Of a stretch of DNA of 64,000 bases, positions 3,939 to 64,000 are shown in pieces. Positions within the stretch are counted from its first letter, which is position 1. The number at the start of each line of letters is the position of its first letter. The DNA comes from Torpedo marmorata (Eukaryota). The translations under genes and the position numbers were made by a program. The notes under the pieces are model-generated. The model had not been told where the DNA came from, did no database searches, and saw nothing but the letters and a program-made list of their open reading frames with translations. The stretch is taken from the NCBI GenBank assembly GCA_977017645.1, contig OZ360239.1, forward strand, positions 33,852,001 through 33,916,000, read 5' to 3'.

Positions 3939-4061
3939 GGTATGGATCCTGCAGATACAACTGTGGGGGACACTCGTCAGATTGTTCCTGTGATTACAAC
4001 TGTGGTTATCATAGAAACTGTTGCACTGACTTCTGTGACTACTGTTTTGATATAAATTACG
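3939..4061 (+). CDS. SMB-like exon 1
   Basis: aacag|GG...TACG|gtaag, 123 nt; YGSCRYNCGGHSSDCSCDYNCGYHRNCCTDFCDYCFDINY. Confidence 0.9.
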
Positions 4062-22000: not shown

Positions 22001-25000
22001 TGGACTGGTTATCCAAGACTGGCCCAATATTTTCATATGATCTTTCTTTGGTCTCTAATGGTTTCCACCAGTGATAATTCATGTAGTTAAATTTATCATT
22101 GTCTGACTTATTAAGTAAATTAATAATATAAAAAGTGATTGCAACGAAACTCATTTTCAAGCTGTGATCTTTCTCTTGACAGCCTGGAAGTTTCATCAAG
22201 TTGTTCATTTGATTACGTTGCTGTATACAATGGCCCATCAATAAATTCTACTATACTTGCAAGATTTTGCCGTGAACCAAATGAAACCTTTACATCATCA
22301 TCCAACAGTATGACAGTTTACTTTCGATCAGATTCTAGTGTAACCAGACGTGGTTTCACTGCAAACTACCGCACCCTGCCCATCAATGATGGTAAGCTTT
22401 GTGAAATTATTTGTCAAGGAATGGCATGAGTAACTGAACGTGTAGCATTGATTCAAAGAGCATTTTGATAATGTGCATCTAAAAATTTAATAAGTATCTT
22501 GTTGCACCAGGAAGCTGTGGTATGGTTTACTGTGCATACGAGGCTGAAATTATTGGAGGATACCAGTCATATGCAGCGATGCCTGTTGTCATACTATACA
22601 AAGCCAACAATATTTATGGATGAGCAAACAATGAAATGCTGGAGGAACTCAGTGGGTCAGGCAGAATCCATAGGTAGAAATGGTCAATCAACGTTTCAGG
22701 TCGGGACCATTTATTGAAACCCGAAACATTGATAGATCATTACTACCCACTGATGCTGCTTGACATGTTGATTTGCTCTCATTGTGTCAAGATTCAAGAT
22801 TTCTTTATTGTCATGTAATAGTACAGAAAACCTAATATGACACAAAATTGCCTTCTGCCTGCCGTAAGGCAGACAACGAATCACCATTAGCGTAGCCCCT
22901 TACAGTAAGAGAGTTTAATCAAGTTTCCAGCATCTGCAGTGTTTCCTCTAACATTTGTGCCTTCTTTCCCCACTTGTAAGTTCCTAATAATGTGAAACAT
23001 TTGTCCTGTCCTGCCATTAGCAGAGGTTTTAAAAAATAGAATCCCAGTTTAGATTATCTTGTCAATCCATTCAACTGCAGGAGGGCAAATGTATTGGTTT
23101 TAGAATTGGTCACAGCGCCCAGATTAAATACAGAGGTAAATGATATATAATCTGGGCACTGTGACCAATTCTAAAAAGCAGTAAGATCAGGAAATGCCAT
23201 TGGAAGGTCATGAACATTCAATGCAAAGACTCTGTAAAATCAACAGTTCCATCAGGCAGTGAGGAGAGATAGACTGGCAGCTGTAGAAGCTCATTGCAAT
23301 GAAGAATTCTGAAATAAGGAAAGCTGGCAATGAATACTGTGAGAGGGACAAAATAAATAGTGTTTCTTTTTCCTTTTATTGTCCCAGCCAGACTTATCAA
23401 TTTCCTTATTGTTCACAGGTGGATCATGTGGAGGATTCCTTGATGGTGCCTCTGGGTCTGTCATCAGTCCTGGTTATCCATACACCTATACAAATAATGC
23501 AGCCTGCATTTGGTACATCAGAGTGAACAGCAGCAAAATAATAGATCTGCGGTTTATTGACCTTGAGTAAGTGAAGATGATTTGACCTTCATTTTATGAT
23601 ACAACTAATCTCAGGGTCGATACCGTTAACTAACTGTTTTAATCGATAATTTCAAATTCACTCAATACATTCAAGGCATTAATTATTTGAAGATGAATCG
23701 TATGCTTGGTCCTTTCACAAAGCTTTGTTGACTTTGCTCAATTTCCATGAATCTAAATACTCTATGAACACATGATTAATAATGTATTTTAGCATTTTCT
23801 CATGACAGCTGTTGTGAACCTGCCTGTAATTTTCATTTGTAATTTCCTACCATCTTGCCTTTTTGAATGTGACAAATAACCCCTGATTATGGCTGTTCCT
23901 TGAATATGAACCTGCTGGATATGAGGACAATCACATTAATTGTTATGATGGCATGATAGTCAAGATACTGGACTACTCTGGAGTAATGTGGTGCAGACAT
24001 ATGTTTGAAACGTATGGTGACAGCTGAGAAATTCATGGAATAAAATAAATCTGGAATAATGATTATGATAGGTGATACAGTCTGATCACATAGAGGATGA
24101 ATTCAGGGACATCCATTTAACTTGATAAGTACTATTTATCGTAATATGTGTGATAAAAGGTTTTTAAGCGGTGTAGCAGCATGGGATTTCATAAGGGACT
24201 GTCCAATGTAGAAAAAAATTATTTCACGGACAGGGGGAAAGGGCAGAAGAGTGGAATCTACTGACGCAAACCTGACAATCGCAATGGGCCAAACAATTTA
24301 ATGCTTTGATAGCTGCCAGAACACATTACAAGATGAAATAAATACAGTATCAAGAGGCATGTTCAGTGTGTAAGGAATTTACTTGATTTGAATTAAGAGC
24401 AAAATCTGGAGAAATATTCATGCAAAATTATTATTTGTAGGAATAAAGCAGCAGTGTTAAATAATGAGAGTTGAAACCAGGTAGATATTTTGGTGCAATG
24501 CAAAAAAGTGCTGGAGAAAATCAGCAGGTCACGCAGCATCTATAGGAAGTAAAGGATAACCAATGTTTCGGGTCTGAGCCCTTTGTCAAGGTATGAGGAA
24601 AATACAGGCAGCTGCCTGAATAAAAAGGTGAGAGGGTTGGTGGAGAAGAAAGGAGGGAGGAAGGGGCAGGGGGAGGAGTACAGGTGGATAGAGGTGGGAG
24701 GACAGAAGAGAAAAAAAATCTGAGGTGATGGGGGAGGGAGTATCTGTGAATACAGAGATAAGGAAAGGGGGTGAGGGCTGGAGGAAAGGAGACAGATAGG
24801 GAAAGGGAGAGACTCAGGGGAGGGGTTTAACGAAAACTGGAGGTCGATGTTAATGCCGTCTGCTTGGAGAGTGCCCAGATGGAATATTAGGTGTTGTTCC
24901 TCCAATTTGCAGGTGGCCTTGGTTTGCAAGTTCATGACGCCATGATCTGCCAACCTGTTGGTATGGGAATGGTGTGTGGAATTTAAATTGTTGGCTACAA

Positions 25001-28000
25001 GGAGGTCCCAATTTTTGCAGTGGACAGAAGGAAGGTGCTCAACGAAACAGTCTTCCATTCTGCGTCCAGTCTCTCCGATGTAGAGGAGGCCACAACGGGA
25101 GCATCGGCTGCAGTAGATGTCACCTGCAAATTCACAATAGAAGAATTACTTCACTTGGAAGGACTGTTTGGGGCCCTGATTGGTGGTGAGGGAGGAGGTG
25201 TGGGCACAAGTGTAGCATTTCTTGAGATCACAGGGGTAGGTACCAAGGGGTGATTTGTGGGAAGGGATGAGTGATTGAGGGAGTCCTTGTGAGAGCGGTT
25301 CCTGAAGAAAGCGGAAAAGAGTGGAGATGGGAAGATGTTTCTGATGGTGCGATCACATTGTGGATGGCAGAAATTGCAGAGGATAGTATGTTGTGAGGTG
25401 AGGACAAGATGAATCCTGCCCTTTTTGCATCTCGGGGCGGAAGGGTCCAGGGCAGATTTGAGGGAAATAGAGAAGATTTAGATAACTGCTGAGATGATGG
25501 CAGAAATGTGGAAGCCACGATTTTGAAGAAGGAGGACATCTCGGATGTTCTGAAATGGAAGACATCATCCTGGGAGCAGTCATGACGGAGACAGAGGAAT
25601 TTAGAGAAAGGAATAAGATGCTTACCGGGGACAGTGGGTGAAGAGGTTGAGTTAAGGTAACTGTAGGAATTGGTATGTTTTATAGGTGTATGTGAGTTTA
25701 GCGTTTTGTATTATGTGTGAAGGAAAATGTTGTTATGCATGTCTTGGAAGGTCTGATTATAAAAGTGTGGCACAATGTTTCTTTTGTTCTTTGAATTGCT
25801 CAAATGATTTCCACAAAGTTTCATCATTGTGTTATTTATATAAATGTTAATTAATAAATAAATACATTTAATTGATTTTCAAAATGCGATCATTCTATTA
25901 ACAGCCTGGAAGTGTCATCGAGTTGCTCCTATGATTCCGTTGCAATATATGATGGACCTTCAACAAATTCCGCTTTGCTGGCAAAACTCTGCCATGATTC
26001 AAATGAAACTTTTACATCATCATCCAACAGCATGACTATTTATTTTCGATCAGATTCCAGTGTAACCAGACGTGGTTTTGTAGCAAACTATCGCTCTCTA
26101 TACGACAACAATGGTGAGCTTTGTTAAAATACTTGTTCAAGGAAGTGGAGCAAGTTAAAAAATGAAATTACCTGCAAAACATTTCATCATAATAAAAGTG
26201 AAATAGTAAAAAAAAATATGATAACTGTGTAGAAATTCTAATTGCAATTGAGAATCTTTGTGAATGCATGTGACACTACAAAGTTTTAGTTAGTTTCCCT
26301 GTGTATGTGAGGCAGAAATAATTGAAGTACACAGGAACATTTAGAGTAATGTCTATGATCGTACAATAAAGGGCCAACAACTTGGAGCCCATATATGAGA
26401 GCTATGGGTATGAATTAATTCTCTGGAAGTCGGCTCCGCTGGCGAAATCAACCTCCAATATATAAATAGAATTAGTTTGTAGTTTGTTTTCTCCTCACTT
26501 TAATTCTTTATAATTCAACTTTTTTCTTTTTATTCTTTTTTTTTCTTTTGTTTTTATTATTATTATTTTTTCTTTAGAATAGTGGTAGGGGGGGTTGGGG
26601 AGGGGAGGGTGGGAGGGAGGGAGGAAATATATCACATGTATTTGGAATGATATATTATTTTTGATTTATGTATTTTGAGATTTTAAAATTTAAATAAAAT
26701 TTTAAAAAAAGGGCCAACATTTAATTTAAAAAAATAATTGAGAGATACAACAGAGTAACATGCCCTTCCGGCTCACGTGCCCATGCCACCCAATTATATC
26801 CATGTTATCTGACTAACCCCGTACGTCTTTGAGCACCCGGAGGAAACCCACATGGAGACGTACAAACTCCTCACAGACAGTATCAGATTTGAACCCGGGT
26901 CGCTGGTACTGTAATAGCGGTGCACTAACTATTACGCTAATCATGTTATTTCAGCACTAATGAGTGGCTTACAATGTGGCAAGTAGGTCTGTGCAGTCAC
27001 AAGGTTTAATAAAATAATAGTAAATTCCGAGTGTTTCTTCTGTTTTGAATCTGCCCCACTTTGGCACGGCACGGGACGGGGTGGTAGAATGGGCTGCAGT
27101 ACCCAGGTTAGAAAGGGAGGTAACATAAAGATTTATTGAGGCCAGAAACTGTCACTGGAAGGGCATGAACATTCATTGTTAAGATTTGTCATTTCAAAAG
27201 TAGGACATATTAATTAACATCTGTAGAATCTTAACGCAATGGAGATTATTTGAATGAACAAGTGTGAAAGTAACATATTGATAATTAGGAACTGAAACAC
27301 ATTGCACATTTAAATTGCATTAAAAGGCCTTTTCATAATGAACATCTCGAGGTTTGACAATGATCTTGTGAGAGCAGATTGATCTTCAGAAAGTTTATGT
27401 TTGGTTCACTGGGTAGATGAGGCAGAAACTATCAGAAAATCCAGGGTCAATTGCAATGATGGTAGTTGAAGTACATCAGGAGGCAACAATATTTGTGTAT
27501 TCTTTCACCACTTGTACTTCGCTTACAATGTGATAATTTTGTCCTGCCCTGGCAGTGGTTGAGGTTTAAGGAAAATAGAATTCCCAGATTTGATTATCTT
27601 GTCAATCATTAAACTGCAGCAGGGCAAACGTATGGGTTTTATAATTGGTCACAGCACCCAGATTAAATACAGAGGTAATTTATATTTAATCTGGGCACTG
27701 TGACCAATTCTAAAAAGCATTTAGATCAGGAAATGCCATTGGAAGGTCATGTACATTCAATGCAAAGACTCTGTAAGATCAACAGTTCCATAAGAGAGGG
27801 AGGAGAGATAGACTGGCAGCTGTAGAAGCTCATTGCAATGAAGAATTCTGAAATAAGGAAAGCTGGCAACAAATACTGTGAGAGGGACAAAAAGAAATAG
27901 TGTTTCTTTTTCCTTTTATTGTCCCAGCCAGACTTATCAATTTCCTTATTGTTCACAGGTGGATCATGTGGAGGATTCCTTGATGGTGCCTCTGGGTCTG

Positions 28001-31000
28001 TCATCAGTCCTGGTTATCCAAACACCTATACAAATAATGCAGCCTGCATTTGGTACATCAGAGTGAACAGCAGCAAAATAATAGATCTGCGGTTTATTGA
28101 CCTTGAGTAAGTGAAGATGATTTGACCTTCATTTTATGATACAACTAATCTCAGGGTCGATACCGTTAACTAACAGATTTAATCGATAATTTCAAATTCA
28201 CGCAATACATTCAAGGCATTAATTATTTGAAGCTGAATCCGATGTTTGGTCCCTTTCACAAAACTTTGTTGTCTGCTTGATTTCCATTAATCTAAGGACT
28301 CTATGAACACATGATTAATAATGTATTTTAGCATTTTCTCATGACAGCTGTTGTGAACCTGCCTGTAATTTTCATTTGTAATTTCCTACCATCTTGCATT
28401 TTTGAATGTGAAAAATAATCCCTGATTATGGCTGCTCCTTGAATGTGAACCTGCTGGATATGAGGACAATCACATTAATTGTTATGATGGCATGATAGTC
28501 AAGATACTGGACTAGTTTGGAGTAATGTGGTGGAGACATATGTTTGAAACGTATGGTGACAGATGAGAAATTCATAGAATAAAATAAATCTGGAATAATG
28601 ATCATGATAGGTTATAAAGTCTGATCACATAGAGGATGAATTCAAGGATATACATTTAATATGATAAGTAATATATATCATAAGTATGTGTGATAAAAGG
28701 TTTTTAAGCAGTGTAGCAGCATGGGATTTCATAAGGGACTGTCCAATATAGAAAAAATTAATATAGGGGGAAAGGGCAGAATAGTGGATTCTGCTGACGT
28801 GAACCCTACCATCGCAATCGGCCAAACAATTTAATGCTTTGATAGCTGCCGGAACACATAACAAGATGAAATAAATTTCAAGAGGCATGTTCAGTGTGTA
28901 AGGAATTTACTTGATTTGAATTAAGAGCAAAATCTGGAGAAACATTCATGCAAAATTATTATTTATAGGAATAAAGCAGCCAGTGTTAAATAATGAGAGT
29001 TGAAACCAGGTAGATATTTTGGTACAATACACAAAAGTGCTGGAGAAAATCAGCAGGTCAAGCAGCATCTATAGGAAGTAAAGGATAACCAAAGTTTCGG
29101 GTCAGAGCCCTTTGTCAAGGTATGAGGAAAATACAGGCAGCTGCCTGAATAAAATGGTGAGAGGGTTGGTGGAGAAGAAAGGAGGGAGGAAGGGGCAGGG
29201 GGAGGAGTTCAGGTCATAGGTGGATAGAGGTGGGAGGACAGAAGAGAAAAAAAATCTGAGGTGATGGGGGAGGGAGTATCTGTGAATACAGAGATAAGGA
29301 AAGGGGGTGAGGGCTGGAGGAAAGGAGACAGATAGGGAAAGGGAGAGACTCAGGGGAGGGGTTTAATGAAAACTGGAGGTCGATGTTAATGCCGTCTGCT
29401 TGGAGAGTGCCCAGATGGAATATTAGGTGTTGTTCCTCCAATTTGCGGGTGGCCTTGGTTTGCAAGTTCATGACGCCATGATCTGCCAACCTGTTGGTAT
29501 GGGAATGGTGTATGGAATTTAAATGGTTTGATACTGGGAGGTCCCAATTTTTGCAGTGGACAGAGGGAAAATGCTCAACGAAACAGTCTTCCATTCTGCG
29601 TCCAGTCTCTCCGATGCAGAGGAGGCCACAACAGGAGCATCGGCCGCAGTAGATGTTGCCTGCAAATTCTCAATGGAAATGGTACTTAACTTGGAAGGAC
29701 TGTTTGGGGCCCCGATTGGTGGTGAGGAAGGAGGTGTGGGCACAGTGTAGCATTTCTTGAGATCATAGGGGTAGGTACCAAGGGGGGATTAGTGGGAAGG
29801 GATGAGTGATTGAGGGAGTCATTGTGGGAGTGGTCCCTGAAGAAAGTGGAGGAGGGTGGAGATGGGAAGATGTTTCTGATGGTGCGATCACATTGTGGAT
29901 TGCAGAAATTGCAGAGGATAATATGTTGTGAGGTGAGGACAAGGTGAATCCCGTCCTCTTTGCATCTCGGGGTGGAAGCGTCCAGGGCAGATTGGAGGGA
30001 AATAGAGAAGATTTAGATAACTGCTGAGATGATGGCAGAAGTGTGGAAGCCACGATTTTGAAGAAGGAGGACATCTCGGATGTTCTGAAATGGAAGACAT
30101 CATCCTGGGAGCAGTCATGGCTGAGACAGAGGAATTTAGATAAAGGAATAAGATGCTTACCGGGGACAGTGGGTGAAGAGGTTGAGTTAAGGTAACTGTA
30201 GGAATTGGTATGTTTTATAGGTGTATGTGAGTTTAGCGTTTTGTATTATGTGTGAAGGAAAATGTTGTTATGCATGTCTTGGAAGGTCTGATTATAAAAG
30301 TGTGGCACAATGTTTCTTTTGTTCTTTGAATTGCTCAAATGATTTCCACAAAGTTTCATCATTGTGTTATTTATATAAATGTTAATTAATAAATAAATAC
30401 ATTTAATTGATTTTCAAAATGTGATCATTCTATTAACAGCCTGGAAGTGTCATCGAGTTGCTCCTATGATTCCGTTGCAATATATGATGGACCTTCAACA
30501 AATTCCGCTTTGCTGGCAAAACTCTGCCAAGATTCAAATGAAACTTTTACATCATCATCCAACAGCATGACTATTTATTTTCGATCAGATGCCAGTGTAA
30601 CCAGGCGTGGTTTTGTAGCAAACTATCGCTCTCTAAATGGTGAGCTTTGTTAAAATACTTGTTGAAGGAAGTGGAGCAAGTTTAAAAAATGAAATTACCT
30701 ACAATACACTTCATCACAATAAAAGTGAAAAAGTAAAAAAAATATGATAACTGTGTAGAAATTCTAATTGCAATTGAGAATCTTTGTGAATGCATGTGAC
30801 ACTACAAAGTTTTAGTTAGTTTCCCTGTGTATGTGAGGCAGAAATAATTGAAGTACACAGGAACATTTAGAGAAATGTCTATAATCGTACAATAAAGGGC
30901 CAACATTTAATTTAAAAAAATAATTGAGAGATACAACAGAGTAACATGCCCTTCTGGCTCACGTGCCCATGCCACCCAATTATATCCATGTTATCTGACT

Positions 31001-55000: not shown

Positions 55001-58000
55001 GCGATCACATTGTGGATTGCAGAAATTGCAGAGGATAGTATGTTGTGAGGTGAGGACAAGGTGAATCCCGTCCTTTTTGCATCTCGGGGTGGAAGGGTCC
55101 AGGGCAGATTTGAGGGAAATAGAGAAGATTTAGATAACTGCTGAGATGATGGCAGAAATGTGGAAGCCACGATTTTGAAGAAGGAGGACATCTCGGATGT
55201 TCTGAAATGGAAGACATCATCCTGGGAGCAGTCATGACGGAGACAGAGGAATTTAGATAAAGGAATAAGATGCTTATCGGGGACAGTGGGTGAAGAGGTT
55301 GAGTTAAGGTAACTGTAGGAATTGGTATGTTTTATAGGTGTATGTGAGTTTAGCGTGTTGTATTATGTGTGAAGGAAAATGTTGTTATGCATGTCTTGGA
55401 AGGTCTGATTATAAAAGTGTGGCACAATGTTTCTTTTGTTCTTTGAATTGCTCAAATGATTTCCACATAGTTTCATCATTGTGTTATTTTTATAAATGTT
55501 AATTAATAAATAAATACAATTAATTGATTTTCAAAATGTGATCATTCTATTAACAGCCTGGAAGTGTCATCGAGTTGCTCCTATGATTCCGTTGCAATAT
55601 ATGATGGACCTTCAACAAATTCCGCTTTGCTGGCAAAACTCTGCCAAGATTCAAATGAAACTTTTACATCATCATCCAACAGCATGACTATTTATTTTCG
55701 ATCAGATGCCAGTGTAACCAGGCGTGGTTTTGTAGCAAACTATCGCTCTCTATATGACAACAATGGTGAGCTTTGTTAAAATACTTGTTGAAGGAAGTGG
55801 AACAAGTTAAAAAATGAAATTACCTACAAAACACTTCATCACAATAAAAGTGAAAAAGTAAAAAAAATATGATAACTGTGTAGAAATTCTAATTGCAATT
55901 GAGAATCTTTGTGAATGCATGTGACACTACAATGTTTTAGTTTGTTTCCCTGTGTATGTGAGGCAGAAATAATTGAAGTACACAGGAACATTTAGAGTAA
56001 TGTCTATGATCGTACAATAAAGGGCCAACATTTAATTTAAAAAAATAATTGAGAGATACAACAGAGTAACATGCCCTTCTGGCTCACGTGCCCATGCCAC
56101 CCAATTATATCCATGTTATCTGACCAACCCCGTACGTCTTTGAGTACCCGGAGGAAACCCACAAGGAGACGTACAAACTCCTCACAGACAGCATCAGATT
56201 TGAACCCGGGTCGCTGGTACTGTAATAGCGGTGCACTAACCACTACGCTAATCATGTTATTTCAGCACTAATGAGTGGCTTATAATGTGGCATGTTGGTC
56301 TGTGCAGTCACAAGGTTTAATAAAATAATAGTAAATTCCGAGTGTTTCTTCTGTTTTGAATCTGCCCCACTTTGGCACGGCACAGGACGGGGTGTTAGAA
56401 TGAGCTGCAGTACCCAGGTTAGAAAGGGAGCTAACATAAAGATTCATTGAGGCCAGAAACTGTCACTGGAAGGGCATGAACATTCATTGTTAAGATTTGT
56501 CATTTCAAAAGTAGGACATATTGATTAACATCTTTAGAATCTTAACGCAATGGAGATTATTTGAATGAGCAAGTGTGAAAATAACATATTGATAATTAGG
56601 AACTGAAACACATTGCACATTTAAATTGCATTAAAAAGCCTTTTCATAATGAACATCTCGAGGTTTGACAATGATCTTGTGAGAGCAGATTGATCTTCAG
56701 AAAATTTTTGTTTGGTTCACTGGGTAGATGAGGCAGAAACTATCAGAAAATCCAGGGTCAATTGCAATGATGGTAGTTGAAGTACATCAGGAGGCACCAA
56801 TATTTGTGTATTCTTTCACCACTTGTACTTCGCTTACAATGTGATAATTTTGTCTTGCCCTGGCAGTGGTTGAGGTTTAAAGAAAATAGAATTCCCAGAT
56901 TTGATTATCTTGTCAATCATTAAACTGCAGCAGGGCAAACGTATGGGTCTTAGAATTGGTCACAGCGCCCAGATTAAATACAGAGGTAATTTATATTTAA
57001 TCTGGGCACTGTGACCAATTCTAAAAAGCATTTAGATCAGGAAATGCCATTGGAAGGTCATGTACATTCAATGCAAAGACTCTGTAAGATCAACAGTTCC
57101 ATAAGAGAGGGAGGAGAGATAGTCTGGCAGATGTAAAAGCTCATTGCAATGAAGAATTCTGAAATAAGGAAAGCTGGCAACAAATACTGTGAGAGGGACA
57201 AAAAGAAATAGTGTTTCTTTTTCCTTTTATTGTCCCAGCCAGACTTATCAATTTCCTTATTGTTCACAGGTGGATCATGTGGAGGATTCCTTGATGGTGC
57301 CTCTGGGTCTGTCATCAGTCCTGGTTATCCAAACACCTATACAAATAATGCAGCCTGCATTTGGTACATCAGAGTGAACAGCAGCAAAATAATAGATCTG
57401 CGGTTTATTGACCTTGAGTAAGTGAAGATGATTTGACCTTCATTTTATGATACAACTAATCTCAGGGTCGATACCGTTAACTAACAGATTTAATCGATAA
57501 TTTCAAATTCATGCAATACATTCAAGGCATTAATTATTTGAAGCTGAATCCGATGTTTGGTCCCTTTCACAAAACTTTGTTGACTGCTTCATTTCCATTA
57601 ATCTAAGGACTCTATGAACACATGATTAATAATGTATTTTAGCATTTTCTCATGACAGCTGTTGTGAACCTGCCTGTAATTTTCATTTGTAATTTCCTAC
57701 CATCTAACATTTTTGAATGTGAAAAATAATCCCTGATTATGGCTGCTCCTTGAATGTGAACCTGCTGGATATGAGGACAATCACATTAATTGTTATGATG
57801 GCATGATAGTCAAGATACTGGACTACTCTGGAGTAATGTGGTGGAGACATATGTTTGAAACGTATGGTGACAGCTGAGAAATTCATAGAATAAAATAAAT
57901 CTGGAATAATGATCATGATAGGTTATAAAGTCTGATCACATAGAGGATGAATTCAGGGACAAACATTTAATATGATAAGTAATATTTATCATAAGTATGT

Positions 58001-61000
58001 GTGATTAAAGGTTTTTTAAGCAGTGTAGCAGCATGGGATTTCATAAGGGACTGTCCAATATAGAAAAAATTAATATAGGGGGAAAGGGCAGAAGAGTGGA
58101 ATCTGCTGACGTGAACCCTACCATCGCAATCGGCCAAACAATTTAATGCTTTGATAGCTGCCGGAACACATAACAAGATGAAATAAATTTCAAGAGGCAT
58201 GTTCAGTGTGTAAGGAATTTACTTGATTTGAATTAAGAGCAAAATCTGGAGAAACATTCATGCAAAATTATTATTTATAGGAATAAAGCAGCCAGTGTTA
58301 AATAATGAGAGTTGAAACCAGGTAGATATTTTGGTACAATACACAAAAGTGCTGGAGAAAATCAGCAGGTCACGCAGCATCTATAGGAAGTAAAGGATAA
58401 CCAATGTTTCGGGCCTGAGCCCTTTGTCAAGGTATGAGGAAAATACACGCAGCTGCCTGAATAAAAAGGTGAGAGGGTTGGTGGAGAAGAAAGGAGGGAG
58501 GAAGGGGCAGGGGGAGGAGTACAGGTCATAGGTGGATAGAGGTGGGAGGACAGAAGAGAAAAAAAATCTGAGGTGATTGGGAAGGGAGTATCTGTGAATA
58601 CAGAGATAAGGAAAGGGGGTGAGGGCTGGAGGAAAGGAGACAGATAGGGAAAGGGAGAGACTCAGGGGAGGGGTTTAACGAAAACTGGAGGTCGATGTTA
58701 ATGCCGTCTGCTTGGAGAGTGCCCAGATGGAATATTAGGTGTTGTTCCTCCAATTTGCGGGTGGCCTTGGTTTGCAAGTTCATGATGCCATGATCTGCCA
58801 ACCTGTTGGTATGGGAATGGTGTGTGGAATTTAAATGGTTGGCTACTGGGAGGTCCCAATTTTTGCAGTGGACAGAGGGAAGATGCTCAACGAAACAGTC
58901 TTCCATTCTGCGTCCAGTCTCTCCGATGTAGAGGAGGCCACAACGGGAGCATTGGCCGCAGTAAATGTCGCCTGAAAATTCACAATGGAAATGGTACTTC
59001 ACTTGGAAGGACTGTTTGGGGCCCCGTTTGGTGGTGAGGAAGGAGGTGTGGGCACAGTGTAGCATTTCTTGAGATCACAGGGGTAGGTACCAAGGGGGGA
59101 TTAGTGGGAAGGGATGAGTTATTGAGGGAGTCCTTGTGGGAGTGGTCCCTGAAGAAAGCGGAGAAGGGTGGAGATGGGAAGATGTTTCTGATGGTGCGAT
59201 CGCATTGTGGATTGCAGAAATTGCAGAGGATAGTATGTTGTGAGGTGAGGACAAGGTGAATCCCGTCCTTTTTGCATCTCGGGGTGGAAGGGTCCAGGGC
59301 AGATTTGAGAGAAATAGAGAAGATTTAGATAACTGCTGAGATGATGGCAGAAATGTGGAAGCCACGATTTTGAAGAAGGAGGACATCTCGGATGTTCTGA
59401 AATGGAAGACATCATCCTGGGAGCAGTCATGACGGAGACAGAGGAATTTAGATAAAGGAATAAGATGCTTACCGGGGACAGTGGGTGAAGAGGTTGAGTT
59501 AAGGTAACTGTAGGAATTGGTATGTTTTATAGGTGTATGTGAGTTTAGCGTTTTGTATTATGTGTGAAGGAAAATGTTGTTATGCATGTCTTGGAAGGTC
59601 TGATAATAAAATTGTGGCACAATGTTTCTTTTGTTCTTTGAATTGCTCAAATAATTTCCACATAGTTTCATCATTGTGTTATTTTTATAAATGTTAATTA
59701 ATAAATAAATACAATTAATTGATTTTCAAAATGTGATCATTCTATTAACAGCCTGGAAGTGTCATCGAGTTGCTCCTATGATTCCGTTGCAATATATGAT
59801 GGACCTTCAACAAATTCTGCTTTGCTGGCAAAACTCTGCCAAGATTCAAATGAAACTTTTACATCATCATCCAACAGCATGACTATTTATTTTCGATCAG
59901 ATGCCAGTGTAACCAGGCGTGGTTTTGTAGCAAACTATCGCTCTCTATATGGTGAGCTTTGTTAAAATACTTGTTGAAGGAAGTGGAGCAAGTTAAAAAA
60001 TGAAATTACCTACAAAACACTTCATCACAATAAAAGTGAAAAAGTAAAAAAAATATGATAACTGTGTAGAAATTCTAATTGCAATTGAGAATCTTTGTGA
60101 ATGCATGTGACACTACAATGTTTTAGTTTGTTTCCCTGTGTATGTGAGGCAGAAATAATTGAAGTACACAGGAACATTTAGAGTAATGTCTATGATCGTA
60201 CAATAAAGGGCCAACATTTAATTTAAAAAAATAATTGAGAGATACAACAGAGTAACATGCCCTTCTGGCTCACGTACCCATGCCACCCAATTATATCCAT
60301 GTTATCTGACTAACCCCGTACGTCTTTGAGTACGCGGAGGAAACCCACATGAAGACGTACAAACTCCTCACAGACAGTATCAGATTTGAACCCGTGTCGC
60401 TGGTACTGTAATAGCGGTGCACTAACCACTACGCTAATCATGTTATTTCAGCACTAATGAGTGGCTTACAATGTGGCAAGTTGGTCTGTCCAGTCACACG
60501 GTTTAATAAAATAATAGTAAATTCCGAGTGTTTCTTCTGTTTTGAATCTGCCCCACTTTTGCACGGCACAGGACGGGGTGTTAGAATGAGCTGCAGTACC
60601 CAGGTTAGAAAGGGAGCTAACATAAAGATTCATTGAGGCCAGAAACTGTCACTGGAAGGGCATGAACATTCATTGTTAAGATTTGTCATTTCAAAAGTAG
60701 GACATATTAATTAACATCTTTAGAATCTTAACGCAATGGAGATTATTGGAATGAAAAAGTGTGAAAGTAACATATTGATTATTAGGAACTGAAACACATT
60801 GCACATTTAAATTGCATTAAAAGGCCTTTTCATAATGAACATCTCGAGGTTTGACAATGATCTTGTGAGAGCAGATTGATCTTCAGAAAGTTTTTGTTTG
60901 GTTCACTGGGTAGATGAGGCAGAAACTATCAGAAAATCCAGGGTCAATTGCAATGATGGTAGTTGAAGTACATCAGGAGGCAACAATATTTGTGTATTCT

Positions 61001-61604
61001 TTCACCACTTGTACTTCGCTTACAATGTGATAATTTTGTCCTGCCCTGGCAGTGGTTGAGGTTTAAAGAAAATAGAATTCACAGATTTGATTATCTTGTC
61101 AATCAATTAAACTGCAGCAGTGAAAACATTTGGGTTTTAGAACTGGTCACAGCACCCAGATTAAATACAGAGGTAATTTATATTTAATCTGGGCACTGTG
61201 ACCAATTCTAAAAAGCATTTAGATCAGGAAATGCCATTGGAAGGTCATGTACATTCAATGCAAAGACTCTGTAAGATCAACAGTTCCATAAGAGAGGGAG
61301 GAGAGATAGACTGGCAGCTGTAGAAGCTCATTGCAATGAAGAATTCTGAAATAAGGAAAGCTGGCAACAAATACTGTGAGAGGGACAAAAAGAAATAGTG
61401 TCTATTTTTCCTTTTATTGTCCCAGCCAGACTTATCAATTTCCTTATTGTTCACAGGTGGATCATGTGGAGGATTCCTTGATGGTGCCTCTGGATCTGTC
61501 ATCAGTCCTGGTTATCCATACACCTATACAAATAATGCAGCCTGCATTTGGTACATCAGAGTGAACAGCAGCAAAATAATAGATCTGCGGTTTATTGACC
61601 TTGA
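3939..61604 (+). CDS. Partial multi-exon gene: SMB-like x7 + Thr-rich linkers + CUB x>=11 extracellular protein (DMBT1/CUZD1/uromodulin-like); 5' and 3' ends not resolved
   Basis: 41 exons with canonical AG/GT ends and compatible phases (modules are phase 1-1; CUB halves join in phase 2). They splice into one open frame of ~4906 nt. Confidence 0.85.
4130..4355 (+). mobile_element. tRNA-derived V-SINE
   Basis: ggtggcacg..ttagcgtaatgctatt head, core gggtttcctccgggtgctccagtttcctcccac, (aaatt)n tail. Confidence 0.75.
4881..4910 (+). CDS. Micro-exon A1 (Cys + Thr linker)
   Basis: tatag|AA...GCAG|gttagt, 30 nt; (E)SCGYDTTTA. Confidence 0.8.
5085..5111 (+). CDS. Micro-exon B1 (Thr-rich)
   Basis: gacag|GC...ACAG|gtaat, 27 nt; (G)TTETTETT. 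Confidence 0.8.
5233..5355 (+). CDS. SMB-like exon 2
   Basis: aacag|GG...TATG|gtaag, 123 nt; YSSCMYNCGRSSSGCSCDYSCRYYGNCCRDFCDYCSHIDY. Confidence 0.9.
5614..5785. repeat. Fold-back element made of two inverted Penelope-type termini (copies at 6643-6815 and 7672-7845)
   Basis: aaaacacaaag..gctggaggaa..cagccggtctcgcagc ... gctgcaagaccggttga..tccagc..tgtgttttt; the right arm matches the 19.2 kb Penelope tail. Confidence 0.7.
5939..5968 (+). CDS. Micro-exon A2
   Basis: aatag|...|gtcag, 30 nt; (E)YCGVDTTTA. Confidence 0.8.
6116..6142 (+). CDS. Micro-exon B2
   Basis: gacag|...|gtatc, 27 nt; (G)TTETTERT. Confidence 0.75.
6263..6385 (+). CDS. SMB-like exon 3
   Basis: 123 nt, near-identical to exon 2, AG/GT intact. 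Confidence 0.9.
6968..6997 (+). CDS. Micro-exon A3
   Basis: 30 nt; (E)YCGVDTTTA. Confidence 0.8.
7145..7171 (+). CDS. Micro-exon B3
   Basis: 27 nt; (G)TTETTETT. Confidence 0.8.
7293..7415 (+). CDS. SMB-like exon 4
   Basis: 123 nt, near-identical to exon 3, AG/GT intact. Confidence 0.9.
7998..8027 (+). CDS. Micro-exon A4
   Basis: 30 nt; (E)YCGVDTTTA. Confidence 0.8.
8175..8201 (+). CDS. Micro-exon B4
   Basis: 27 nt; (G)TTETTERT. Confidence 0.75.
8325..8447 (+). CDS. SMB-like exon 5
   Basis: aacag|GA...AATG|gtgag, 123 nt; YGSCMQNCGGSSSGCSCDYTCHYYGNCCSDFCDYCSHIDN. Confidence 0.9.
8561..8590 (+). CDS. Micro-exon A5
   Basis: Pyrimidine tract, then cagtag|GA...GTAG|gttagt, 30 nt; (G)FCGNDPTGV. 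Confidence 0.75.
   Translation, partial: DFVEMTLLE
9005..9607 (-). mobile_element. Internally deleted Chapaev3-like DNA transposon
   Basis: cactggacac... terminus; minus ORF SLKSHFLYLHLDFFPAGLGAVNDEHGEKFHQDIATMEKWYQG (transposase C-terminal region); cta/tta flanks. Confidence 0.75.
9957..10115 (+). CDS. SMB-like exon 6 with fused linker (alternative in-frame acceptor at 9990)
   Basis: tgtcag|GC...AATG|gtgag, 159 nt; TRASRTYWTTASYGSCRHNCGGSSFGCSCDYSCRYYGRCCADFCDYCAYMDN. Confidence 0.85.
10622..11078 (+). mobile_element. 5'-truncated Rex1/Babar-type LINE
   Basis: ORF end ITAWYG...LQRVVNSA...ILKDPHHPGHALFTLLPSGKRYRSL; aataaa followed by (ttctga)n tail. Confidence 0.85.
11426..11449 (+). CDS. 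Micro-exon A6
   Basis: ctttag|GA...ACAG|gtcagt, 24 nt; (G)YCGGYTT. Confidence 0.75.
12047..12925 (-). mobile_element. 5'-truncated Rex1/Babar-type LINE
   Basis: Minus ORF WCTNNNLALNVTKTKELIVDFRK...KAHQRLYFLRSLRRFGM; tail ttcagattcagg..tttattg. Confidence 0.85.
13471..13494 (+). CDS. Linker micro-exon
   Basis: tttcttag|AA...ACAG|gtatgg, 24 nt; (E)GPTFLPT, 134 nt upstream of SMB exon 7. Confidence 0.7.
13629..13751 (+). CDS. SMB-like exon 7
   Basis: aacag|AA...AATG|gtaag, 123 nt; NNSCRYRCGGNSSSCSCDHDCYYHGNCCFDFCNHCAYINN. Confidence 0.9.
13985..14808 (+). mobile_element. GC/CpG-rich non-autonomous retroelement with (cttgaat)n tail
   Basis: Abrupt GC island ending aataaattgaatcttgaatcttgaatcttgaatc; a related 3' end occurs antisense at 22788-22915. 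Confidence 0.6.
15104..16048 (-). mobile_element. 5'-truncated L1/Tx1-type LINE with TSD
   Basis: Minus ORFs ...KWESDL...QYNFVHQLYLTP and ...IPLEKITYNLR...KMWSPY (ORF2 C-terminus); poly-T; 13 bp TSD tattattgtttct at 15091-15103 and 16049-16061. Confidence 0.85.
16133..16159 (+). CDS. Micro-exon A7
   Basis: ctatag|GA...TCAG|gtcagt, 27 nt; (G)YCGSYDTS. Confidence 0.75.
16290..17010 (+). mobile_element. Old degenerate L2/Deu-type LINE or SINE remnants
   Basis: 3' end resembles the ...tttagggatgagcaataa...ggccttgc tail; heavily decayed, boundaries approximate. Confidence 0.35.
17050..17296 (+). mobile_element. tRNA-derived V-SINE
   Basis: B-box-like gggttcgaatccc, V-core gggttttccccaggtgctccagtttcctccc, aaatttaaattt tail. 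Confidence 0.75.
17565..17800. repeat. Fold-back Penelope-terminus-derived element
   Basis: gcagcatccatggagagaaatgatcag ... ctgaccatttctctccatggatgctgc inverted arms; related elements at 584-720, 4650-4850 and 22625-22790. Confidence 0.65.
18092..18103 (+). CDS. Candidate 12-nt micro-exon
   Basis: Long pyrimidine tract ctctttttccttcttttcag|CACCAATATCAG|gtaacc; (A)PIS, phase 1-1. Confidence 0.55.
18220..19290 (+). mobile_element. Penelope-like element remnant (GIY-YIG end plus terminal repeat)
   Basis: SFFxxxGFP...DRIPLVLTYHPT- and LPVATHFNS...EEKHLVFCLGTL-type frames; tail ttgaggaagggctcaggcccaaaatgtc. Confidence 0.8.
19397..19544 (+). CDS. CUB1 N-half exon (diverged unit 0)
   Basis: cacag|GT...GA|gtaagt, 148 nt; GSCGGYLDGAYGSVISPGYPYNYPNNAACIWYIRVNSNQTINLQFTEM. 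Confidence 0.9.
19758..20365 (-). mobile_element. Internally deleted Chapaev3-like DNA transposon
   Basis: cactggacaacaa ... ttgttgtccaatg TIRs, tta/ata flanks; same deletion structure as 9005-9607. Confidence 0.75.
20636..21060 (-). mobile_element. Degenerate CR1-like LINE 3' fragment
   Basis: atcatagagtcgtgcagcacagg tail, then ...tccatcacctcttctggcag... typical of antisense CR1 3' ends; decayed. Confidence 0.45.
21295..21390 (+). mobile_element. 3' fragment of the same V-SINE
   Basis: taggtcaattgggtgtaattgggcagcacgggctcgtgggccga... matches 4270-4345. Confidence 0.6.
22183..22391 (+). CDS. CUB1 C-half exon
   Basis: gacag|C...GATG|gtaag, 209 nt; LEVSSSCSFDYVAVYNGPS...FRSDSSVTRRGFTANYRTLPIND. 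Confidence 0.9.
23098..23176. repeat. ~79 bp near-perfect inverted repeat, one per CUB unit, ending ~243 nt upstream of each N-half exon
   Basis: ttttagaattggtcacagcgcccagatta / taatctgggcactgtgaccaattctaaaa: 29 bp arms with 1 mismatch. Confidence 0.9.
23419..23566 (+). CDS. CUB2 N-half exon (unit 1)
   Basis: 148 nt; GSCGGFLDGASGSVISPGYPYTYTNNAACIWYIRVNSSKIIDLRFIDL. Confidence 0.9.
24494..25698 (-). mobile_element. Penelope-like remnant in unit 1
   Basis: Minus frames ...EDCFVEHL...KLEEQHLIFHLGTLQADGINI; homologous to 18220-19290. Confidence 0.85.
25905..26113 (+). CDS. CUB2 C-half exon (unit 1)
   Basis: aacag|C...AATG|gtgag, 209 nt; ends RSLYDNN. Confidence 0.9.
26380..26707 (+). mobile_element. 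Short 5'-truncated L1/Tx1 insertion private to unit 1
   Basis: Starts tggagcccatatatgaga (WSPYMR, compare 15368 ORF end), ends aataaa...poly-A; TSD aaagggccaaca at 26368-26379 and 26708-26719; units 2-9 show the empty site. Confidence 0.88.
26720..26944 (-). mobile_element. V-SINE, antisense, co-amplified in CUB units 1-9
   Basis: Reverse complement of head and core (cccggaggaaaccca; gaacccgggtcgctgg; tacgctaa). Other copies near 30.9, 35.1, 39.3, 43.5, 47.65, 51.85, 56.05 and 60.2 kb. Confidence 0.75.
27959..28106 (+). CDS. CUB3 N-half exon (unit 2)
   Basis: 148 nt, AG/GT intact, PGYPNTY variant. Confidence 0.9.
29023..30233 (-). mobile_element. Penelope-like remnant in unit 2
   Basis: Same insertion, co-amplified. 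Confidence 0.85.
30440..30639 (+). CDS. CUB3 C-half exon (unit 2)
   Basis: 200 nt; ends RSLN. Confidence 0.9.
32145..32292 (+). CDS. CUB4 N-half exon (unit 3)
   Basis: 148 nt, PGYPNTY variant. Confidence 0.9.
33211..34421 (-). mobile_element. Penelope-like remnant in unit 3
   Basis: GIY-YIG-type IYCGRCSRCGLLYIGETGRR in ORF 33402-33941. Confidence 0.85.
34628..34836 (+). CDS. CUB4 C-half exon (unit 3)
   Basis: 209 nt; ends RSLYDNN. Confidence 0.9.
36341..36488 (+). CDS. CUB5 N-half exon (unit 4)
   Basis: 148 nt, PGYPNTY variant. Confidence 0.9.
37405..38614 (-). mobile_element. Penelope-like remnant in unit 4
   Basis: GIY-YIG-type motif in ORF 37596-38162. Confidence 0.85.
38819..39018 (+). 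CDS. CUB5 C-half exon (unit 4)
   Basis: 200 nt; ends RSLY. Confidence 0.9.
40521..40668 (+). CDS. CUB6 N-half exon (unit 5)
   Basis: 148 nt, PGYPYTY variant. Confidence 0.9.
41585..42795 (-). mobile_element. Penelope-like remnant in unit 5
   Basis: GIY-YIG-type motif in ORF 41776-42315. Confidence 0.85.
43002..43201 (+). CDS. CUB6 C-half exon (unit 5)
   Basis: 200 nt; ends RSLY. Confidence 0.9.
44706..44853 (+). CDS. CUB7 N-half exon (unit 6)
   Basis: 148 nt, PGYPYTY variant. Confidence 0.9.
45771..46981 (-). mobile_element. Penelope-like remnant in unit 6
   Basis: GIY-YIG-type motif in ORF 45962-46501. Confidence 0.85.
47188..47387 (+). CDS. CUB7 C-half exon (unit 6)
   Basis: 200 nt; ends RSLY. 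Confidence 0.9.
48892..49039 (+). CDS. CUB8 N-half exon (unit 7)
   Basis: 148 nt; private A>D change (NNADCIW). Confidence 0.9.
49956..51165 (-). mobile_element. Penelope-like remnant in unit 7
   Basis: GIY-YIG-type motif in ORF 50147-50713. Confidence 0.85.
51372..51571 (+). CDS. CUB8 C-half exon (unit 7)
   Basis: 200 nt; ends RSLY. Confidence 0.9.
53075..53222 (+). CDS. CUB9 N-half exon (unit 8)
   Basis: 148 nt, PGYPYTY variant. Confidence 0.9.
54140..55350 (-). mobile_element. Penelope-like remnant in unit 8
   Basis: GIY-YIG-type motif in ORF 54331-54870. Confidence 0.85.
55557..55765 (+). CDS. CUB9 C-half exon (unit 8)
   Basis: 209 nt; ends RSLYDNN. Confidence 0.9.
57270..57417 (+). 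CDS. CUB10 N-half exon (unit 9)
   Basis: 148 nt, PGYPNTY variant. Confidence 0.9.
58335..59545 (-). mobile_element. Penelope-like remnant in unit 9
   Basis: GIY-YIG-type motif in ORF 58526-59065. Confidence 0.85.
59752..59951 (+). CDS. CUB10 C-half exon (unit 9)
   Basis: 200 nt; ends RSLY. Confidence 0.9.
61457..61604 (+). CDS. CUB11 N-half exon (unit 10); C-half not in window
   Basis: 148 nt, AG/GT intact. Confidence 0.88.
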
Positions 61605-62521
61605 GTAAGTGAAGATGATTTGACCTTCATTTTATGATACAACTAATGTCAGGTTCGATACCGTTAACTAACAGTTTTAATCGATAATTTCAAATTCACA
61701 CAATACATTCAAGGCATTAATTATTTGAAGCTGAATCCGATGTTTGGTCCCTTTCACAAAACTTTGTTGTCTGCTTCATTTCCATTAATCTAAGGACTCT
61801 ATGAACACATGATTAATAATGTATTTTAGCATTTTCTCATGACAGCTGTTGTGAACCTGCCTGTAATTTTCATTTGTAATTTCCTACCATCTTGCATTTT
61901 TGAATGTGAAAAATAATCCCTGATTATGGCTGCTCCTTGAATGTGAACCTGCTGGATATGAGGACAATCACATTAATTGTTATGATGGCATGATAGTCAA
62001 GATACTGGACTACTCTGGAGTAATGTGGTGCAGACATATGTTTGAAACGTATGGTGACAGCTGAGAAATTCATAGAATAAAATAAATCTGGAATAATGAT
62101 CATGATAGGTTATAAAGTCTGATCACATAGAGGATGAATTCAGGGACAAACATTTAATATGATAAGTAATATTTATCATAAGTATGTGTGATTAAAGGTT
62201 TTTTTAGCAGTGTAGCAGCATGGGATTTCATAAGGGACTGTCCAATGTAGAAAAAATTAATATAGGGGGAAAGGGCAGAAGAGTGGAATCTGCTGACGTG
62301 AACCCTACCATCGCAATCGGCCAAACAATTTAATGCTTTGATAGCTGCCGGAACACATAACAAGATGAAATAAATTTCAAGAGGCATGTTCAGTGTGTAA
62401 GGAATTTACTTGATTTGAATTTAGAGCAAAATCTGGAGAAACATTCATGCAAAATTATTATTTATAGGAATAAAGCAGCCAGTGTTAAATAATGAGAGTT
62501 GAAACCAGGTAGATATTTTGG

Positions 62522-63722
62522 TACAATACACAAAAGTGCTGGAGAAAATCAGCAGGTCAAGCAGCATCTATAGGAAGTAAAGGATAACCAATGTTTCGGG
62601 TCTGAGCCCTTTGTCAAGGTATGAGGAAAATACAGGCAGCTGCCTGAATAAAAAGGTGAGAGGGTTGGTGGAGAAGAAAGGAGGGAGGAAGGGGCAGGGG
62701 GAGGAGTACAGGTCATAGGTGGATAGAGGTGGGAGGACAGAAGAGAAAAAAAATCTGAGGTGATGGGAAGGGAGTATCTGTGAATACAGAGATATGGAAA
62801 GGGGGTGAGGGCTGGAGGAAAGGAGACAGATAGGGAAAGGGAGAGACTCAGGGGAGGGGTTTAACGAAAATTGGAGGTCGATGTTAATGCCGTCTGCTTG
62901 GAGAGTGCCCAGATGGAATATTAGGTGTTGTTCCTCCAATTTGCGGGTGGCCTTGGTTTGCAAGTTCATGACGCCATGATCTGCCAACCTGTTGGTATGG
63001 GAATGGTGTGTGGAATTTAAATGGTTGGCTACTGGGAGGTCCCAATTTTTGCAGTGGACAGAGGGAAGGTGCTCAACGAAACAGTCTTCCATTCTGCGTC
63101 CAGTCTCTCCGATGTAGAGGAGGCCACAACGGGAGCATCGGCTGCAGTAGGTGGCGCCTGCAAATTCACAATGGAAGGGTTACTTCACTTGGAAGGATTG
63201 TTTGGGGCCTCGATTGGTGGTGAGGAATGAGGTGTGGGCACAGTGTAGCATTTCTTGAGATCACAGGGGTAGGTACCAAGGGGGGATTAGTGGGAAGGGA
63301 TGAGTAATTGAGGGAGTCTTTGTGGGAGTGGTCCCTGAAGAAAGAGGAGAAGGGTGGAGATGGGAAGATGTTTCTGATGGTGCGATCACATTGTGGATGG
63401 CAGAAATTGCAGAGGATAGTATGTTGTAAGGTGAGGAAAAGGTGAATCCCGTCCTTTTTGCATCTCGGGGCGGAAGGATCCAGAGCAGATTTGAGGGAAA
63501 TAGAGAAGATTTAGATAACTGCTGATATGATGGCAGAAGAGTGGAAGCAACATTTTTGATGAAGGAGGACACCTCGGATGTTCTGAAATGGAAGATATCA
63601 TCCTGGGAGCATTCATGACGGAGACAGATAAAAGAATAAGATGCTTACCGGAGACAGTGTGTGAAGTGGTTGACTTGAGGTAACTGTAGGAATTGGTCGG
63701 TTTTATAGGTGTATGTGAGTTT
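62522..63722 (-). mobile_element. Penelope-like remnant in unit 10 (more diverged)
   Basis: ORF 62568-63092; many private substitutions after ~63100. Confidence 0.85.
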
Positions 63723-63738
63723 ATTTTTTTGTATTATG

Positions 63739-64000
63739 TGTTATGGACCATGACTGACCATTTGGACTGCGGACGGTCAGCAGGAAGGATGAAGTCTTTT
63801 GGAGTACACACTGGGGCCAGGTACTGAAAAAGTTAACTTCCCCAGGACTTGGTGTACCCAGAGAGAGAGAGAGAGAGAGAGCAGAGGGAGACAGACTGTG
63901 GAAAAGATACATTGTTGCACTTTTTCAAAAAGCAGGGGCAGATCTCTGCAAAGCAAACAGTTGTGAGTTGCAAAGGCTACAGGACACAGCCAAATCCAGG
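63739..64000. mobile_element. Candidate LTR-type insertion interrupting unit 10
   Basis: Homology to the unit stops after gtattatg and new sequence begins TGTTATGG, with an internal (GA)n tract; the other end is not visible. Confidence 0.4.

Follow-up and report, generated by a model that had tools for sequence, protein, structure and literature searches.

A domain-coding intragenic CUB array in a DMBT1/CUZD1-family gene of the ray Torpedo marmorata

The closest described systems to the locus reported here are the kringle IV type 2 (KIV-2) repeats of LPA, described in PMC4378929 as a 5.5 kb unit of two exons and two introns present in 1 to more than 40 copies, and human DMBT1, in which, according to PMC9038570, a number of SRCR domains ranging from 7 to 21 changes protein size and bacterial binding. 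The window analysed here is a stretch of 64,000 nucleotides of Torpedo marmorata (GenBank assembly GCA_977017645.1, contig OZ360239.1, positions 33,852,001 to 33,916,000 of the forward strand), numbered from its first letter, and it carries a homogenised macro-tandem array of CUB-coding units with a period of about 4.19 kb. The best explanation, which we hold with good confidence, is that of a domain-coding intragenic array in a ray somatomedin-B (SMB)-CUB-ZP gene, the copies of which exchange sequence and are held coding, together with an inferred mechanism, function and copy-number variation (CNV).

As in LPA KIV-2, the unit of the ray array is of kilobase size, consists of two exons with two introns, codes for a single domain and recurs in tandem inside one gene, but the domain is a CUB and not a kringle, the unit measures 4.19 instead of 5.5 kb, and polymorphism is proven in LPA whereas the ray array is read in one haplotype. 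Human DMBT1 belongs to the same family as the ray gene (CUB-ZP end) and its domain number is likewise set by an intragenic array (CNV1/CNV2); however, its repeats are SRCR domains whereas those of the ray gene are CUB and SMB domains, with no SRCR, and turnover in the ray would be far slower. A preliminary description of this DNA had drawn the comparison with LPA KIV-2 and DMBT1, and the comparison is apt. Indeed, the ray array joins this class with three of its five defining features: (i) head-to-tail kilobase units, introns included, that are more than 95% identical, (ii) one whole in-frame domain per unit with symmetric intron phase, in all nine complete units, and (iii) sequence exchange between units and concerted evolution. 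The mechanism is one already known, and the ray locus is an LPA/DMBT1-type array in which CUB takes the place of SRCR and selection on the repeated exons can be measured.

Anatomy of the array and exchange between its units

Self-BLAST of the window gave diagonals up to 32.9 kb long and 96-98% identical, spaced by about 4.19 kb or a multiple of it, between 22950 and 63741, and the array (22950..63741, forward strand) comprises nine complete units and a truncated tenth. The preliminary description had placed about ten units at 23020..63738; the array is real, but it starts near 22950 and not at 23020, and its tenth unit has exon A only, since unrelated sequence takes over at 63742, some 200 bp ahead of the expected start of exon B. 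Measured from exon A to the next exon A, the units are 4540, 4186, 4196, 4180, 4185, 4186, 4183, 4195 and 4187 bp long; complete units 2-9 thus fall within 4180-4196 bp, and unit 1 is longer because of a private insertion of a long interspersed element (LINE). Pairwise substitution differences amount to 0.91-3.86% among units 1-9 and to 2.9-4.9% for the partial unit 10; the preliminary description had called whole units, including introns and dead transposable elements, nearly identical. Each of the nine complete units is composed of an exon A of 148 nt (phase 1 to 2) and an exon B (phase 2 to 1) of 209 or 200 nt; once spliced, the pair has 119 or 116 codons, four of them for Cys and none a stop, and both CUB halves (exon A and exon B) match the Pfam CUB model over the curated cut-off; the claim of one in-frame CUB per unit holds in 9/9 of them. 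An older, diverged CUB (CUB0), sharing 75-76% amino-acid identity with the array CUBs, stands before the homogenised array. This CUB0, the 340-bp private insertion of unit 1 and the two length forms of exon B were missing from the preliminary description, as were the identity of the gene (SMB-CUB-ZP), a second array upstream and the repeated expansions in sharks and rays.

Furthermore, unit 10 diverges by 7-10% over the 700 bp preceding 63742. The sequence that interrupts it (63742-64000), which begins with TGT, includes a short GA repeat and has no match elsewhere in the window, is possibly an insertion of long terminal repeat (LTR) type.

The array units are recombinant mosaics under concerted evolution. 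Among 110 informative sites, the incompatibility of neighbouring sites was 0.243, against 0.393 ± 0.018 in permuted data (0/2000 permutations), and incompatibility climbs with distance from 0.16 to 0.56. Units 3 and 8 combine an identical tract of 1579 bp with a difference of 5.2% in their first 350 bp, and the units are therefore mosaics. Units 1 and 2 carry 65 and 53 private substitutions versus 2-20 for units 3-9, which is an edge effect. Core CUBs are 98.9% identical within the window protein, 97-98% within the related proteins of Narcine bancroftii and 99.2% within that of the basking shark Cetorhinus maximus, but those of the window are only 83-84% identical to the core CUBs of Narcine and 64% identical to those of Cetorhinus; in addition, 14 columns are fixed differently between all nine window repeats and all seven Narcine core repeats. 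High purity together with a recombination signal is given in PMC5100051 as the criterion of concerted evolution, and the array qualifies because it joins high within-protein identity to a recombination signal. A symmetric phase-1 two-exon cassette, with its introns and dead transposons, was multiplied about ten times, the copies presumably being made by unequal crossing-over, and crossover and gene conversion would homogenise the middle of the array while its edges lag. The recombination mechanism proposed earlier finds support in the site compatibility, the mosaic units and the diverged edges.

When the 3' 2.45 kb of the units is compared, units 3-8 (32145-57269) form three sister pairs that lie one inside the other as in a mirror (3/8, 4/7 and 5/6, with bootstrap values of 100, 100 and 85). 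This order was considered as a clue to the mechanism and rejected, since it would arise by chance in 1 of 15 cases and the three pairs are not of the same age.

Coding constraint, copy number and alternative explanations

The copies of the array are held coding by purifying selection. In units 1-9, variable columns represent 8 of 348 columns in exons versus 305 of 3771 in introns (p=1.8e-5) and, outside CpG, 7 of 334 versus 248 of 3620 (p=2.5e-4), these counts excluding 66 splice-flank columns and the columns filled in fewer than five units. Variation in exons is 3.5-fold lower than in introns, and random pairs of intron blocks were as uniform as the exons in none of 20,000 draws. All 21 intron gaps have a length that is not a multiple of three, whereas the sole exon gap, of 9 nt, shortens only the linker between CUBs; the greater uniformity of the exons and this contrast between indels indicate that the copies are kept coding. 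In the SMB array, the same comparison between exons and introns was not significant (4/180 versus 42/853, p=0.16).

Several points weigh against our interpretation. The uniformity of the exons could partly reflect exon-biased conversion instead of selection, and the exons carry only eight substitutions (five amino-acid-changing and three silent, on 273 and 84 sites), which are too few for a dN/dS test. The array contains no fresh whole-unit duplicate, its transition/transversion ratio is low (0.88), and unit 10 is interrupted, the reading frame past the interruption lying outside the window. Neither ZP nor signal peptide was found in the window, so that the complete gene is inferred from homologues, and the gene is known here from genomic sequence and homologues. 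Among public sequencing runs, nine records from three studies shared words with the window, none of them listed as RNA; the best, possibly the source sample, contained 0.36 of the words and the other eight 0.06-0.07, and these figures speak neither for nor against our interpretation.

The low transition/transversion ratio and the pairing of units as near-sisters (3/8, 4/7, 5/6) could be accounted for by an assembly artefact, with two haplotypes stacked or error-laden reads duplicated. However, the sister pairs lie at offsets of 5, 3 and 1 and are 0.2, 0.8 and 1.3% divergent over the 3' 2.45 kb; such differing offsets and ages are not those of stacked haplotypes, for which the same order and one offset are expected. 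The low ratio was also rejected as a sign of sequence error, since transitions and transversions are distributed alike at shared sites (49/61) and private sites (98/106), and seven other local paralogue pairs give a similar pooled value of 1.10. Moreover, the differences avoid exons, variants at 110 sites recur in different units, an insertion with a target-site duplication is confined to one unit, and similar arrays are present in the independent assemblies of Narcine and Cetorhinus. An artefact is consequently unlikely, and in our estimation almost negligible. It is also quite improbable that the array is selectively neutral or lies in a decaying gene copy, with the extra CUBs as tolerated passengers: Narcine has two paralogues, which makes redundancy plausible, and unit 10 is interrupted, but this interruption sits in intron 1 of the unit, the 41 exons of the gene model show no stops, frameshifts or broken splice sites, and the exons are significantly depleted of changes.

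As for the copy number of this exchanging, coding array, which the preliminary description took to be probably polymorphic, we consider it rather more likely than not to vary between haplotypes, as a rough model based on one haplotype, in which deletions are invisible, still allows. The core units carry a mean of 11 private substitutions, which at the rate of 7e-10 per generation reported for the epaulette shark in PMC10587355 correspond to about 3.7 million generations. If this shark rate applies, the overwrite rate is estimated at about 2e-6 events per generation, that is, about 3,700-14,500 times below the rate of DMBT1 CNV1, given as 0.7-2.7% in PMC4851238; near-identical whole units are absent, and turnover would therefore be far slower than in human DMBT1. 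In a rough stepwise model (nucleotide diversity 0.0005-0.002, the upper value and the mutation rate being borrowed from another species and the lower values assumed), heterozygosity was 0.25-0.71 when 30-100% of events were taken to alter the length and 0.04-0.30 when this share was 3-10%. An array of the same origin could also be effectively fixed now, as an old expansion that conversion and selection maintain and in which copy-number alleles are not common, and we regard this as a tenable though less probable outcome. The lower of the two heterozygosity ranges and the age of the private substitutions would agree with it, as would the distance between units (the closest unit-long window on the six diagonals tested is 0.57% apart and adjacent units at least 1.17%) and the youngest visible exchange (units 3/8, offset 5, about 2.4 kb), which is shorter than a unit and conversion-like; but deletions leave no trace in a single haplotype, the higher range is reached if 30-100% of exchanges are crossovers, and the two Narcine paralogues have five versus eight CUBs with cores that are nevertheless 97% identical. 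A hypermutable multi-allelic CNV like those of DMBT1 and LPA, with a change in length every hundred generations or so, seems unlikely. Such a rate would leave most units an identical sibling, which none of them has, and the overwrite rate given above is thousands of times too low, although mispairing could make use of identical stretches of 576-1579 bp, the assembly could have collapsed long blocks of identical units, and unit size and two-exon design match KIV-2 as described in PMC4378929. If the array is polymorphic, it would allow one to ask directly whether variation arising by recombination provides diversity at a candidate mucosal-defence locus, given that the point-mutation rate of sharks is among the lowest measured in vertebrates.

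Host gene, relatives and predicted function

By homology, the array sits in an elasmobranch gene of somatomedin-B(n)-CUB(m)-[ZP] layout, which belongs to the DMBT1/CUZD1 family. The gene model comprises 41 exons, with AG/GT boundaries in 41/41, and 1634 codons without a stop. The seven SMB exons (Table 1) are accompanied by Thr/Cys-containing linker micro-exons, all of phase 1 to 1, and the three SMB exons tested all match Pfam PF01033, two of them over the curated cut-off. The second intragenic array, found in this region, has a 1029-bp unit made of one SMB exon and two micro-exons, and its complete units are 1.65-3.89% apart. Tandem Repeats Finder, with a longest period of 500, missed both intragenic arrays, and the array locus is a practical caution for assembly and annotation. 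The junction between SMB region and CUBs, micro-exons included, gave a 73% alignment with a Narcine bancroftii protein, and a protein search with exon B kept 16 of 46 candidates; 14 of these proteins come from sharks or rays, the best identity is 87% (Narcine), and the matches by themselves point to a batoid, probably an electric ray. Tandem SMB domains with Thr-rich linkers followed by CUB, as found in the window gene, are also the arrangement of ray-finned fish cuzd1.1-type proteins, in which a ZP domain then follows; however, the latter usually have one or two CUBs (up to five, interspersed, in Sparus) and no long pure run of CUBs.

No ZP domain was found in the window, but the closest homologues end in ZP and the gene extends beyond the window end. 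Likewise, no convincing signal-peptide exon was found within the window. At the 5' end, 144-161 is a possible further micro-exon, and hydrophobic ATG-started stretches or exon-like pieces, possibly part of this end, occur at 1892-1970, 2248-2269 and 3188-3240, none being assignable as a signal-peptide exon. The SRCR motif is absent from the six frames of the window and from the elasmobranch homologues, and the upstream exons are SMB exons; the N-terminal SRCR array of DMBT1 proper is lacking from the window. In a ZP tree of 40 proteins hand-picked out of 150, in which homologues served as proxies, the chondrichthyan, DMBT1 and CUZD1 clades were each supported at 99, their mutual order being unresolved. 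The gene is placed in the DMBT1/CUZD1 family and cannot be called DMBT1.

The closest proteins found are XP_069755899.1 and XP_069755660.1 of Narcine bancroftii and XP_078420927.1 of Cetorhinus maximus, the last annotated as DMBT1-like; all three are predicted models and were compared as proteins. Like the window gene, they have near-identical tandem CUBs (5, 8 and 10, respectively), theirs being followed by ZP, and XP_069755899.1 also shares with it SMB domains and the same linkers; in contrast to them, the window gene has both an SMB array and at least ten complete CUBs. Among elasmobranch relatives, the domains of which were counted on predicted and in part partial gene models, CUB number is one in Scyliorhinus canicula and in the SMB-CUB-ZP protein of Heterodontus, two in Mobula and Stegostoma, five and eight in the Narcine paralogues and ten in Cetorhinus, and SMB number ranges from 0 to 14. 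Constraining the ray and basking-shark arrays to a single clade gave a tree that was rejected (p-AU 3.9e-55), in a test on 30 rows with near-identical repeats thinned and with the group named after the first tree had been seen, and the basking-shark array arose separately. The nine repeats of the window form a clade with a support of 90/90, under the starred threshold. Near-identical sets of two or three CUBs are also present in rodent, frog, rhea, turtle and seabream relatives, so the tendency to expand is family-wide. Such repeated independent expansions in one gene family make it possible to ask, by comparing relatives, whether selection acts on domain number. Between the Narcine paralogues with five and eight CUBs, core CUBs are 97% and ZP regions 94% identical; the closer likeness of the core CUBs suggests that these paralogues may exchange sequence.

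In a sample of 150 proteins, biased by the lengths used in the main search (569-1813 aa) and by the listing of 120 of 175 matches, 36 had SMB without SRCR, 70 had SRCR without SMB, 44 had neither and none had both. The 36 proteins with SMB and without SRCR are all from sharks, rays or ray-finned fish, and the SRCR carriers are from coelacanth and tetrapods, with two further records. In a speculative extension, which we consider doubtful, the gene would be a two-dial accordion: shark and ray lineages would independently expand SMB or CUB, and this ray both, selection would keep the CUBs alike and so let a single adaptive change spread through all copies, the SMB array would be a functional precursor of, or substitute for, the SRCR array of lobe-finned vertebrates, and copy number would be a fast, polymorphic handle on mucosal binding avidity in a slow-mutating lineage. 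No literature on the arrays of this gene in sharks or rays was found in publication listings and abstract openings, and supplements of genome papers could bear on this point.

For both CUB exons, the best match among solved structures is cubilin (3kq4). In cubilin, a long run of CUBs is used for multipoint binding; these CUBs are old and divergent and not homogenised, and cubilin is without SMB or ZP. In the window, Tyr, Glu, Asp and Asp positions are kept in 10/10 complete CUBs and align with those of cubilin and PCPE-1 CUBs, the Tyr chosen being the one that we take to be the signature residue. Each of the ten CUBs also has two or three N-glycosylation sequons. Tyr-Glu-Asp-Asp is described in PMC10850435 as the calcium-binding CUB signature, such CUBs binding by multipoint attachment. 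The array CUBs are predicted to be of this calcium-binding type, and at least ten of them would give avidity for a repetitive ligand. By analogy, the product would likeliest be a secreted or membrane-shed, ZP-polymerising epithelial or mucosal glycoprotein, the avidity of which is raised by the CUB run. Zebrafish cuzd1.1 is listed as intestine-specific in larvae in PMC9600436, and PMC8959185 gives it as upregulated in a mutant with more goblet cells.

Coordinates and intronic elements

Table 1. Exons, second array and transposable elements located in the window
Feature	Position	Strand	Remarks
Seven SMB exons	3939-4061, 5233-5355, 6263-6385, 7293-7415, 8325-8447, 9957-10115, 13629-13751	+	phase 1 to 1
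Second intragenic array	5007..8519	+	period 1029 bp, ~3.4 copies
Linker micro-exons, SMB region to first CUB	16133-16159, 18092-18103	+	match Narcine linker
CUB0	19397..22391 (exons 19397-19544, 22183-22391)	+	older diverged CUB outside homogenised array
CUB1	23419..26113 (exons 23419-23566, 25905-26113)	+	209-nt form
CUB2	27959..30639 (exons 27959-28106, 30440-30639)	+	200-nt form
CUB3	32145..34836 (exons 32145-32292, 34628-34836)	+	209-nt form
CUB4	36341..39018 (exons 36341-36488, 38819-39018)	+	200-nt form
CUB5	40521..43201 (exons 40521-40668, 43002-43201)	+	200-nt form
CUB6	44706..47387 (exons 44706-44853, 47188-47387)	+	200-nt form
CUB7	48892..51571 (exons 48892-49039, 51372-51571)	+	200-nt form
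CUB8	53075..55765 (exons 53075-53222, 55557-55765)	+	209-nt form
CUB9	57270..59951 (exons 57270-57417, 59752-59951)	+	200-nt form
CUB10 exon A	61457..61604	+	exon B not in window
Insertion, unit 1 only	26380..26719	+	340 bp, LINE-like 3' end, A-rich tail, 12-bp target-site duplication
GIY-YIG-like retroelement relic	41600..42635 (unit 5 coordinates)	-	decayed; in intron 1 of every unit

The insertion private to unit 1 is related to an element at 15104-15406, the open reading frame (ORF) of which weakly matches zf-RVT (E 0.004, below the cut-off). The GIY-YIG-like relic, which we take to be of Penelope type, is 68% identical over 1098 bp to an element at 18230-19277; it clusters with GIY-YIG in the ESM Atlas at 0.96, which is a lead only, and a Pfam search of the ORFs of the intronic GIY-YIG-like retroelements gave no match. 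In addition, three intronic copies of one dispersed element, 86-90% identical, are located at 772-1239, 9000-9595 and 19748-20353, and decayed fragments of the reverse-transcriptase end of LINE-type elements are present in both orientations at 10467-10921 and 12054-12936, one ORF of these fragments matching Pfam ALKBH8_N (E 1e-13). Finally, an inverted repeat with arms of about 80 bp that are 84-85% identical lies just 5' of exon A in every unit (e.g. 40199-40384), and it is predicted to fold in the pre-mRNA.

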